A DNA stretch of 64,000 bases from a virus (Duplodnaviria > Caudoviricetes), in the IMG/VR virus record IMGVR_UViG_3300020049_004561, positions 7,593-71,592 of that record. The stretch is one strand, 5' to 3'. The notes below the pieces were generated by a model, which was given only the letters and a program-made list of their open reading frames with translations, made no database searches and had not been told where the DNA came from. Position 1 is the first letter of the stretch. The number at the start of each line of letters is the position of its first letter. Both the position numbers and the translations under genes were made by a program. This document shows positions 36,190 through 37,894 of this stretch, piece after piece.

Positions 36190-36861
36190 ATGAGCAGACT
36201 CAGTTGTTACAGGAGTCTGGAGATGAAGGCTGAAGAAAGGATTGGTCAGGTATTTGGGAGACTGTCTGTGGTTGCGGTCGTTAGTAAAGCAGCGCACGGA
36301 AAAACAGTGTTGAAGTGTATGTGTAGTTGTGGCAAAGAGACACAAACTACTGTACAGTGTTTGCTTAGGGGGTGGACTAAGTCCTGCGGTTGTCTGCGAA
36401 GAGGCGGGGGCACTGGCAACCGAACTCACGGAATGTGCTCAAGCATTACCTACGTGAGTTGGAGAAGCATGGTCCAAAGATGCACAAATCGTAGGAATCC
36501 TCGTTATCACGATTACGGTGGTCGTTGGATCACTGTCTGCGATGGGTGGCTCAAGTTTGAGAACTTCTACAAAGACATGGGGCCGAGGCCTTCTAAGGAC
36601 CACAGCCTGGATCGCAAGGATAATGATGGTCCATACTGCAAAGATAACTGTAGGTGGGCGACAAAGAAAGAGCAGAACAACAATCAGAGGAATAGTAGGC
36701 TAGTCACCCACAGCGGAGAGACACGGACAGTATCACAATGGGCGGCTTCTGTAGGAATGCACACAAGCGTGCTTGTGCGTAGGCTCAATCTCGGATGGAC
36801 AATGGACAAGGCCCTAACGGAACCAGTGAAGAAACGGAGATCACGTGACACCTCTGGCTAA
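36190..36861 (+). CDS. HNH homing-endonuclease-like protein (same family as 9904-10542)
   Basis: KCMCSCG, TKSCGC, YGGRWITVCDGW, HSLDRKDNDGPYCKDNCRWAT. Confidence 0.88.
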   Translation: MSRLSCYRSLEMKAEERIGQVFGRLSVVAVVSKAAHGKTVLKCMCSCGKETQTTVQCLLRGWTKSCGCLRRGGGTGNRTHGMCSSITYVSWRSMVQRCTNRRNPRYHDYGGRWITVCDGWLKFENFYKDMGPRPSKDHSLDRKDNDGPYCKDNCRWATKKEQNNNQRNSRLVTHSGETRTVSQWAASVGMHTSVLVRRLNLGWTMDKALTEPVKKRRSRDTSG

Positions 36862-37894
36862 AGTAAACAACTACCTAGATGAACAACGTCAGCAAGGGGT
36901 TGATGAGTGGACGGTAGAGACCGCAAGAGCTATGCTCTACGGATATTTCTGCCGTTACGAGAAACATGATGCTGACCTTGTGGTCAGGGGTATTGAAGTA
37001 CCCTTCTCAATCGAACTTCCTGTTCCAGACGACCTGCCTGAAGAGTGGAGACCTAAGGGACCACGGTATGTAGGCGGTATCATCGACAGCATTGTAGAGC
37101 GTGATGGCAAGCTCTATGCAACCGACTTAAAGACAGCTTCTTGGGTGAGCGACACATACTGGGCAGAGCTAGATACGAACTATCAACTCACTCAGTATAA
37201 GTTCGCTTTGTTTGCTTCCGGGTTCGAAGATGCACATTTGGAATGGGACGTCATCGTAAAGCCCGGAATTGAACCGAAGAAGTTGACACTTGCAGCCAAG
37301 GAAGAGATCAGCAACGGTAATTACTGTGGCTGGCCTGTTTCAAGGGATGTACCGGACGATGGTCGTGAATCTGCCGTACTGTACGGTAGACGGCTGATGT
37401 CTTGGTATGAGGATCGACCTGATTCTTTTCTGAGGAGACCGTATGATCGAAGTCCGCAACAGTTGGTGGATTTCATCTACCAACAGCACAGGTTGGCTAC
37501 TTTGGCAGAAACGCTCTCGTTAGAAGGAGGTGATCATCATCTATCGTACAAGAACACGTTCAGTTGTAACAGATATGGTGGCGGCTTGTGCGATTACCAC
37601 GGACTCTGTTGTGGTCACACGGACCCGGCCAAAGCGGGTTTGAGGCTCAAAGAGTCATCTGGGGAAGTCAGACCAGATTATGGCATGACCACAAGTCAAG
37701 CCAAAATCCTGACTACCTGTCCAACTGAATGGTGGTACAAGTACCAGGCAGGGCTTGAGCCGGTGGTCAAGAAAAAGACCCCGGCTCTTGCTCTCGGAAC
37801 TCTCGTGCATGCTGGTAGAGAGCTTATCCTTGCGGACAGATTGGTGAATCCGATTGTCTTGCCTATGGAAAAGCCTCAGAAGACCAGTGCTTGA
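36845..37894 (+). CDS. PD-(D/E)XK (Cas4/AddB-like) exonuclease, apparently circularly permuted
   Basis: IEVPF, GIIDSIV, TDLKTA, QLTQY; Cys cluster CNRYGGGLCDYHGLC followed by TTSQAKILTTCPTEWWYKY...ALALGTLVHAG. Confidence 0.85.
   Translation: MTPLAKVNNYLDEQRQQGVDEWTVETARAMLYGYFCRYEKHDADLVVRGIEVPFSIELPVPDDLPEEWRPKGPRYVGGIIDSIVERDGKLYATDLKTASWVSDTYWAELDTNYQLTQYKFALFASGFEDAHLEWDVIVKPGIEPKKLTLAAKEEISNGNYCGWPVSRDVPDDGRESAVLYGRRLMSWYEDRPDSFLRRPYDRSPQQLVDFIYQQHRLATLAETLSLEGGDHHLSYKNTFSCNRYGGGLCDYHGLCCGHTDPAKAGLRLKESSGEVRPDYGMTTSQAKILTTCPTEWWYKYQAGLEPVVKKKTPALALGTLVHAGRELILADRLVNPIVLPMEKPQKTSA

Follow-up and report, generated by a model that had tools for sequence, protein, structure and literature searches.

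The subject of this analysis is a gene for a PD-(D/E)XK nuclease in a 64,000-nucleotide stretch of DNA (the window) from a virus of the Caudoviricetes, positions 7,593 to 71,592 of the linear, 71,592-base IMG/VR record IMGVR_UViG_3300020049_004561. The gene lies on the forward strand at 36845-37894, as do all the window features given below, begins with a GTG that is preceded 5 nucleotides (nt) upstream by GGAG, ends with TGA, and encodes a protein of 349 residues. An initial annotation, made from the letters alone, had read this protein as a permuted relative of Cas4 and AddB in which the segment that normally opens such nucleases follows the rest of the chain. On the basis of the sequence comparisons presented herein, we now propose that the gene very likely encodes a functional nuclease of the RecB/Cas4/AddB type whose chain has been circularly permuted in nature, and that this nuclease probably contains an iron-sulfur (Fe-S) cluster.

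The first part of the protein is a core module (residues 1-262; 36845-37630) that corresponds to residues ~79-322 of canonical relatives and contains, in order, two helices, strand beta1 (with E51), motif II, motif III, the QxxxY motif, further sheet and helices, and a cluster of three cysteines. Within the core, D81 (37085-37087) is the RecB motif II aspartate and a predicted metal ligand, D94-L-K96 (37124-37132) is the (D/E)xK of RecB motif III, and Q114-x-x-x-Y118 (37184-37198) is the QhxxY motif, all three being invariant in the alignment of the window protein's family (A1). The cluster C241-x7-C249-x5-C255 (37565-37609) is equivalent to the C-terminal Fe-S ligands of the canonical proteins. 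A junction linker of 25 residues (256-280; 37610-37684) then joins what would be the old C-terminal tail to the old N-terminus; across the permuted proteins this linker measures 21-40 residues, approximately the canonical tail plus the canonical N-terminal residues. It is followed by the relocated N-terminal module (residues 281-332; 37685-37840), which was delimited with PF12705, TIGR00372 and hhalign and carries S284, C292 (the predicted fourth Fe-S ligand), Y300, G318-x-x-x-H322 with the RecB motif I His, and E326. Canonical proteins run from Cys1 and the motif I His through two helices, beta1, motif II, motif III and QxxxY to the three Cys, and the window protein departs from this order, with motif II, motif III, QhxxY and three Cys coming before Cys1 and motif I. 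The segment moved to the end of the chain is therefore the first ~55-75 residues of the canonical proteins, that is, the part with Cys1 and the motif I His. Every motif listed in the initial annotation was found where it had been placed, with the reading frame as described, M281 at nt 37685, the three-Cys cluster at residues 241-255, and the pattern T-T-S-x6-T-C-P-x2-W-W-Y-K-Y ... A-L-x-x-G-x-x-V-H after that cluster, at residues 282-322. Motifs II and III, QhxxY, the motif I His and four Cys, by which the RecB/Cas4/AddB iron-staple family is recognized, are thus all present, only in another order. M281 was also considered as an internal start, which would make the module a separate polypeptide, and this was rejected, as the position is V, I or F in relatives.

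The swapped order is also what family profiles see. The whole protein scores 44.6 bits against PF12705 (PDDEXK_1; model length 247, gathering score 22 bits) in two pieces of reversed order, where residues 19-126 match model positions 82-173, the same positions being returned when the first 269 residues are scanned alone, and the last 80 residues alone match positions 3-46 (E 6.9e-5, 23.3 bits), each piece separately scoring above 22 bits. The PHROG exonuclease families 1218 and 69 match the protein as well. Positions 1-48 of TIGR00372 (cas4) align to residues 281-331 at 17.7 bits, far from the equivalog cut-off of 65 bits, and hence the window protein is not a Cas4 equivalog. When the two parts are aligned separately to canonical relatives, residues 281-336 fall on the N-terminus of these proteins and residues 15-262 on their remainder. 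Specifically, phmmer against the canonical protein P0108 pairs residues 282-342 with 12-71 (E 9e-08) and residues 67-260 with 116-304 (E 1e-10), and hhalign against an alignment of 36 canonical proteins puts the module onto residues 6-56 (98.3%, E 1.4e-14) and the core onto residues 84-322 (100%, E 1e-43). Conversely, once canonical proteins have been rotated, every landmark in them lines up with its counterpart in the A1 profile. Against PDB sequences the A1 profile gave marginal matches only (AddA, E 0.047; MGME1, E 0.58). We conclude from these profile comparisons that the resemblance of the C-terminal segment to the canonical N-terminal element is not due to chance.

The most trivial explanation of such an arrangement would be an artefact, namely a frameshift, a chimera made during assembly, or two adjacent partial copies called as one gene, and the window does come from a metagenomic virus record rated only ~50% complete. 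However, the exact protein is present on three contigs, and 13 near relatives (90%-identity clusters at 39-94% identity, drawn from JGI, ENA, NCBI and Logan) are colinear with it over 98-100% of its length, which excludes the assembly chimera that the initial annotation had named as a way for its reading to fail. The N-terminus is likewise real, since the open frame (354 residues) reaches only five codons above the GTG and leaves no space for a hidden N-terminal element, and the homologues begin at the same residue. In addition, more than 100 clusters at 50% identity have the permuted order, as does the complete genome of a cultured phage, Tunturi_1. An artefact is therefore extremely improbable.

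A model of the window protein was built with AlphaFold2 (AF2) on alignment A1 (predicted local distance difference test, pLDDT, 83.7; predicted template modelling score, pTM, 0.79), with the canonical relative P0049 as the comparison model (pLDDT 90.9), and VIA-align was run against 48,161 PDB representatives. The top match of the window model is AdnA (Z 9.3, root-mean-square deviation 3.5, 180 residues aligned), with model residues 1-255 on residues 840-1039 of the chain; the Cas4-family protein CtACE1 (Z 8.3; 1-254 on 77-267) and AddB (Z 7.0; 1-265 on 854-1140) are also matched, and Dna2, RecE, MGME1, RecB, Cas4 and Exo5 rank lower. These Z values are moderate, yet all of the top matches come from one family, and we read the model as having a RecB-like nuclease fold. 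The P0049 model aligns to the same chains from its residue 1 (AdnA, Z 16.9, chain 791-1039; AddB, Z 14.5, 785-1134; CtACE1, Z 14.2, 3-267), while the aligner, which is sequential, leaves unmatched the last ~95 residues of the window model and the first 50-75 residues of the targets. The shift of the matched ranges means that these 50-75 N-terminal residues of the targets are the ones matched by the N-terminal module of the canonical relative. The predicted secondary structure of P0049 is [E H H E H] then [H H E E E H H E H H E H, Cys loop, E], and that of the window protein is [H H E E E H H E H H E H, Cys loop, E] then [H H E H]. The second order is a rotation of the first, which is consistent with a permuted fold, although as evidence it is indirect. 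Among viral models in BFVD, A0A6J5NSY1 (343 residues) matches over the full length (TM 0.83/0.85), and the other viral matches, mostly named PD-(D/E)XK nucleases, reach TM 0.5 at most; Foldseek against the PDB returned matches of the right family, none with an E better than 2e-3. It should be noted, as a point that weighs against the modelled arrangement, that confidence drops (pLDDT 47-57) at the Cys cluster and the linker, and only there.

The window protein is one of many. An exhaustive search at the level of 50%-identity representatives gave 695 matches, and topology was scored on 163 retrieved proteins, in which the module follows the core in 114, precedes it as in canonical proteins in 37, and could not be placed in 12 that are fragments or unclear; none of the 163 has the module at both ends. 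The permuted order accordingly extends over more than 100 phage protein clusters at 50% identity, and in the databases these proteins are named only 'PD-(D/E)XK nuclease superfamily' or 'exonuclease'. One of them is gp59 of Tunturiibacter phage Tunturi_1 (PP887698.1, 46555-47589), a cultured acidobacterial phage, which is annotated 'exonuclease' and has its core at residues 26-257, its module at 286-334 and its cysteines at 240, 247, 253 and 297. A megablast search with 15 kb around the nuclease gene matched no phage record, and the tblastn matches were to two Tunturi phages only. Together, the swapped homology and the many permuted homologues support the circular permutation of a Cas4/AddB-like nuclease that was initially suggested.

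Conservation was counted over 115 permuted proteins and compared with a rotated set of 35 canonical ones, in which the same landmark residues are kept. In the permuted proteins C241, C249, C255 and C292 are each retained in 115/115, H322 in 112, S284 in 111 and G318 in 114. For the core, D81 is D in 102 of the 104 aligned permuted proteins and in 35/35 canonical ones, residue 94 is D or E in 103 and K96 is K in 103 of 106 aligned, and Q114 (109/109) and Y118 (111/111) are without exception. These counts bear on the possibility that the C-terminal segment is a decaying, functionless remnant of a second tandem copy and that the enzyme works without motif I and the fourth Cys. Some relatives do tolerate loss of the cluster, as Cys-ligand mutants of the Cas4 protein Pcal_0546 lost it and still cleaved DNA (PMC4176176). 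Nevertheless, the module residues C292, S284, G318 and H322 persist at the frequencies given down to less than 30% overall identity, which indicates purifying selection on the module, and the AF2 model has pLDDT 72-93 over residues 281-340. We consider it very unlikely that the segment is such a remnant, and take the module to be a working part of the permuted enzyme.

Two further features of the relatives should be mentioned. Inteins with LAGLIDADG domains (PF14890, PF14528) are inserted just after motif III at the same site in both topologies, the carriers being the permuted protein P0093 (795 residues) and canonical relatives (P0161 and P0289-P0291 complete the set). The site corresponds to about residue 97-101 of the window protein (nt ~37133-37147). 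Moreover, two proteins of canonical order, P0121 (673 residues) and P0288 (620 residues), have N-terminal extensions of ~260-335 residues with no Pfam match.

An end-to-end comparison of the two topologies was made on two family members, not on the window protein. The core of permuted P0134 (325 residues) is 51% identical to that of canonical P0136 (342 residues; BLAST, E 7e-86), and residues 273-323 of P0134 match residues 5-55 of P0136 (55%, E 2e-15). When P0136 is rotated at residue 60, the two align end-to-end with 164/317 positions identical (~52%) and a score of 762, versus 566 without rotation. The junction in P0134 consists of the canonical tail, three residues, and the canonical N-terminus. 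The 119 best relatives of P0134 include 25 permuted and 87 canonical proteins, and the highest core identity between any permuted and any canonical protein is 68%, for P0134 and P0170.

A tree of 244 cores requires eight changes of topology, at least four of which are forced by well-supported branches. The permuted lineages that branch from within canonical groups are P0134, P0187, P0248, P0267 and one clade of 21. The positions of the new termini differ as well. Given as the number of residues that precede the beta1 Glu and the number that follow the motif I His, the cut points are 53/11 in P0134, 31/37 in P0187, 36/37 in P0204, 32/53 in P0267, 52/26 in P0248 and 50/27 in the window protein, against a median spacing of 58 from this His to the Glu in canonical proteins, and the proteins fall into two cut classes of 84 and 29. 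We propose that the permutation probably arose more than once, at two or more different cut points. The alternative is a single ancient permutation, in which case the nesting among canonical proteins would result from recombination (mosaic genes) or from errors in the tree. Phage genes are indeed mosaic, several deep branches are weakly supported, and the module (~45 residues) is too short for a robust tree of its own. On the other hand, in P0134 and P0187 the nearest relatives of the core (65-68%) and of the module (61-76%) are both canonical, P0134 groups with canonical P0169 and P0170 at a support of 98, these two permuted proteins have different new termini (53/11 versus 31/37), and an approximately unbiased (AU) test on 67 rows rejects a single permuted clade (delta lnL 170, p 6e-5). 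A single origin thus appears unlikely. Two points count against repeated origin all the same: the permuted groups used in the AU test were named only after the tree had been seen, and recombination between phage genes can obscure the signal in core trees. With these in mind, we lean towards regarding the family as a hotspot of recurrent circular permutation, with at least four changes of order and at least two cut sites, some of the changes being recent (50-68% identity). The Fe-S cluster may favour repeated permutation by holding both ends of the chain together.

As to the route, we propose that the permuted gene would have arisen by an in-frame head-to-tail fusion, most simply once the gene had been duplicated in tandem, with the outer parts then lost. 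The record of intermediates speaks against this, as neither a tandem-duplication intermediate nor a protein with the module at both ends was present among ~290 proteins, longer ones included; those of 570-2000 residues comprised only N-terminal fusions and intein forms, with no tandem fused duplicate. A search of viral contigs and genome contigs for loci related to P0134 found none. The gene might instead have been split and re-fused in swapped order, for example after insertion of a homing endonuclease or another element, with no duplication and truncation. The missing intermediate would fit this, and mobile elements do target the nuclease gene, with inteins in both topologies and an HNH endonuclease gene abutting the gene in the window. 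Fission and re-fusion would, however, need an additional transposition step, and the split two-gene form was not seen, although short proteins were not searched. Moreover, the junctions, made up of canonical tail, short linker and canonical N-terminus, are the direct product expected of a tandem head-to-tail fusion. We regard the split-gene route as improbable and favour duplication followed by loss of the outer parts.

The neighbours of the gene suggest what the enzyme does. Upstream, the gene for an HNH endonuclease (36190-36861; phrog_374, E 1.5e-63) shares 17 nt with the start of the nuclease gene and may represent a mobile element of the homing type, situated beside a gene which mobile elements target elsewhere. 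Further upstream is a gene for a phage-encoded peptidase of the HslV family (34618-35220; phrog_1040, E 1.7e-25). Downstream of the nuclease is the gene for a Sak4-like single-stranded DNA annealing ATPase (AAA_24; 38007-38882; phrog_124, E 2.5e-25; PF13479, E 8.8e-20, colinear). The 112-nt gap between the two contains a terminator-like hairpin with an 8-bp, GC-rich stem and a subsequent T run (37944-37985), which was read from the sequence and of which the scan picked up part. A promoter-like site (37891-37920) adjoins this hairpin, and transcription of the nuclease gene may not be strictly coupled to that of the Sak4-like gene. Next comes an open reading frame of 159 residues (38882-39361) with no Pfam or PHROG match, in the position that is occupied in Tunturi_1 by the gene for the single-stranded DNA-binding protein (SSB) and in other phages by DUF669; no sequence similarity to the Tunturi SSB was detected, and none of the neighbours in the window showed a DUF669 domain. 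It is followed by a gene (39871-41655) for a primase of the archaeo-eukaryotic (AEP) type fused to a DnaB-like helicase (PF22548, E 3.6e-22; PF03796, E 1.1e-43), the primase part being of the type found in TOTE conflict systems (PF22548) and the helicase part a DnaB-like C-terminal domain. There are no cas genes among the neighbours within ~4 kb; the whole window was not scanned for CRISPR arrays.

The order of nuclease, annealase and third gene is the same in Tunturi_1 (exonuclease gp59, Sak4-like gp57, SSB gp56), and in Pseudomonas phage Phi47 an exonuclease with a Cas4 domain was purified together with a Sak4-like annealase and a DUF669 protein (PMC13687109). As the nuclease gene precedes that of the Sak4-like annealase, its product most likely serves a phage recombination module as the exonuclease that resects ends. 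We propose that it would resect DNA ends in the 5'-3' direction, leaving 3' single-stranded tails for the neighbouring Sak4-like annealase, and that these tails would serve recombination-dependent replication or repair of the phage. Set against this proposal is the fact that both the polarity of the exonuclease and its partnership with Sak4 are drawn from context and relatives only.

In the proposed mechanism, the fold and the active site would be unchanged by the permutation. H322, contributed by the C-terminal module, would complete the Mg/Mn site formed with D81 and D94, and K96 together with Q114 and Y118 would complete the active site. The cysteines C241, C249, C255 and C292 would bind the Fe-S cluster, but since all four lie within 52 consecutive residues they would not staple the ends of the chain. 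In the Cas4 protein SSO0001 a backbone carbonyl binds the metal together with His62, Asp99 and Glu113, and the cluster has Cys32, Cys188, Cys191 and Cys197 as its ligands, while Pcal_0546 has the equivalent pair Cys64 and His94 (PMC4176176). The spacing of 30 between C292 and H322 is precisely that of Cys32-His62 and Cys64-His94, and this match suggests that H322 belongs to the metal site. The four Cys are the likely ligands of the cluster.

How the window protein relates to known systems can now be stated. The canonical phage PD-(D/E)XK 'exonucleases' (PF12705, PHROG 1218/69; for example P0049, P0108 and P0136) have the same motifs and four Cys, and their length (~320-360 residues) and predicted fold are those of the permuted proteins. 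They differ in that their first ~55-75 residues are N-terminal, whereas in the permuted proteins these are C-terminal and the old termini are joined by the linker of 21-40 residues. AddB, AdnA-AdnB and the CRISPR- or Argonaute-associated Cas4 proteins (3U44 chain B, 9NP6, 9IAB, 4IC1, 4R5Q) share the RecB-like fold (VIA Z 7.0-9.3 with the window model, 9.4-16.9 with the canonical relative), and motifs I, II and III, QhxxY, the 1+3 set of Cys and the 30-residue spacing from Cys1 to His are common to them and the window protein. Unlike AddB and Cas4, the window protein is permuted; it lacks a helicase domain, has no cas genes close to it, and is a stand-alone member of a phage recombination module. 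Lambda Exo/Beta, RecE/RecT and Phi47 (PMC13687109) resemble the window in that the gene for a PD-(D/E)XK exonuclease adjoins that for an annealing protein, and the presumed role, resection of ends for recombination, is shared as well. In contrast to Lambda Exo/Beta and RecE/RecT, the partner in the window is a Sak4-like ATPase of RecA fold and the nuclease is of the Fe-S type and permuted.

Natural permutation is not new to the superfamily. In Hef (PDB 1J22) the first core helix is contributed from the C-terminus (PMC3424549), and such nucleases of the Hef/XPF type have the same superfamily fold as the window protein; they belong to a different family, however, and Hef has no Fe-S cluster. In the window protein, by comparison with Hef, the core helix stays N-terminal and the part that moved is the accessory module with the Fe-S and motif I residues. 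Hef is the only permutation recorded by Steczkiewicz et al. 2012 (PMC3424549), a phylogenomics paper on Cas4 (PMC5704561) has no word beginning with 'permut', and the CIRPIN survey does not mention nucleases. No permuted Fe-S nuclease of the Cas4/AddB/RecB type was found described in the literature, which was covered for part of the journals, so that absence is not proven. Judged by their sequences, the permuted phage nucleases represent a new topology within an established enzyme family, widespread in phages and presumably unchanged in function.

This variant has practical consequences. Because family profiles match the permuted proteins in two out-of-order pieces, such proteins can look truncated, or as if they had no fourth Cys or motif I, and pairs of canonical and permuted proteins (~52% identical overall after rotation, at most 68% in the core) are a benchmark for permutation-aware search tools. 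The same pairs are suited to studies of permutation, folding and cluster insertion, and experiments are feasible as the cultured phage Tunturi_1 carries the permuted gp59. Above all, the family offers a natural test of the iron-staple idea for nucleases of the Cas4, AddB, Dna2 and Exo5 type. If the cluster only pinned the termini, their covalent joining should relax selection on the cysteines, yet the four Cys are kept in 115/115. If our reading is true, a long-range staple has become a local, four-Cys motif of 52 residues with every Cys retained, and this would argue that the cluster has a role beyond that of tying the termini together.

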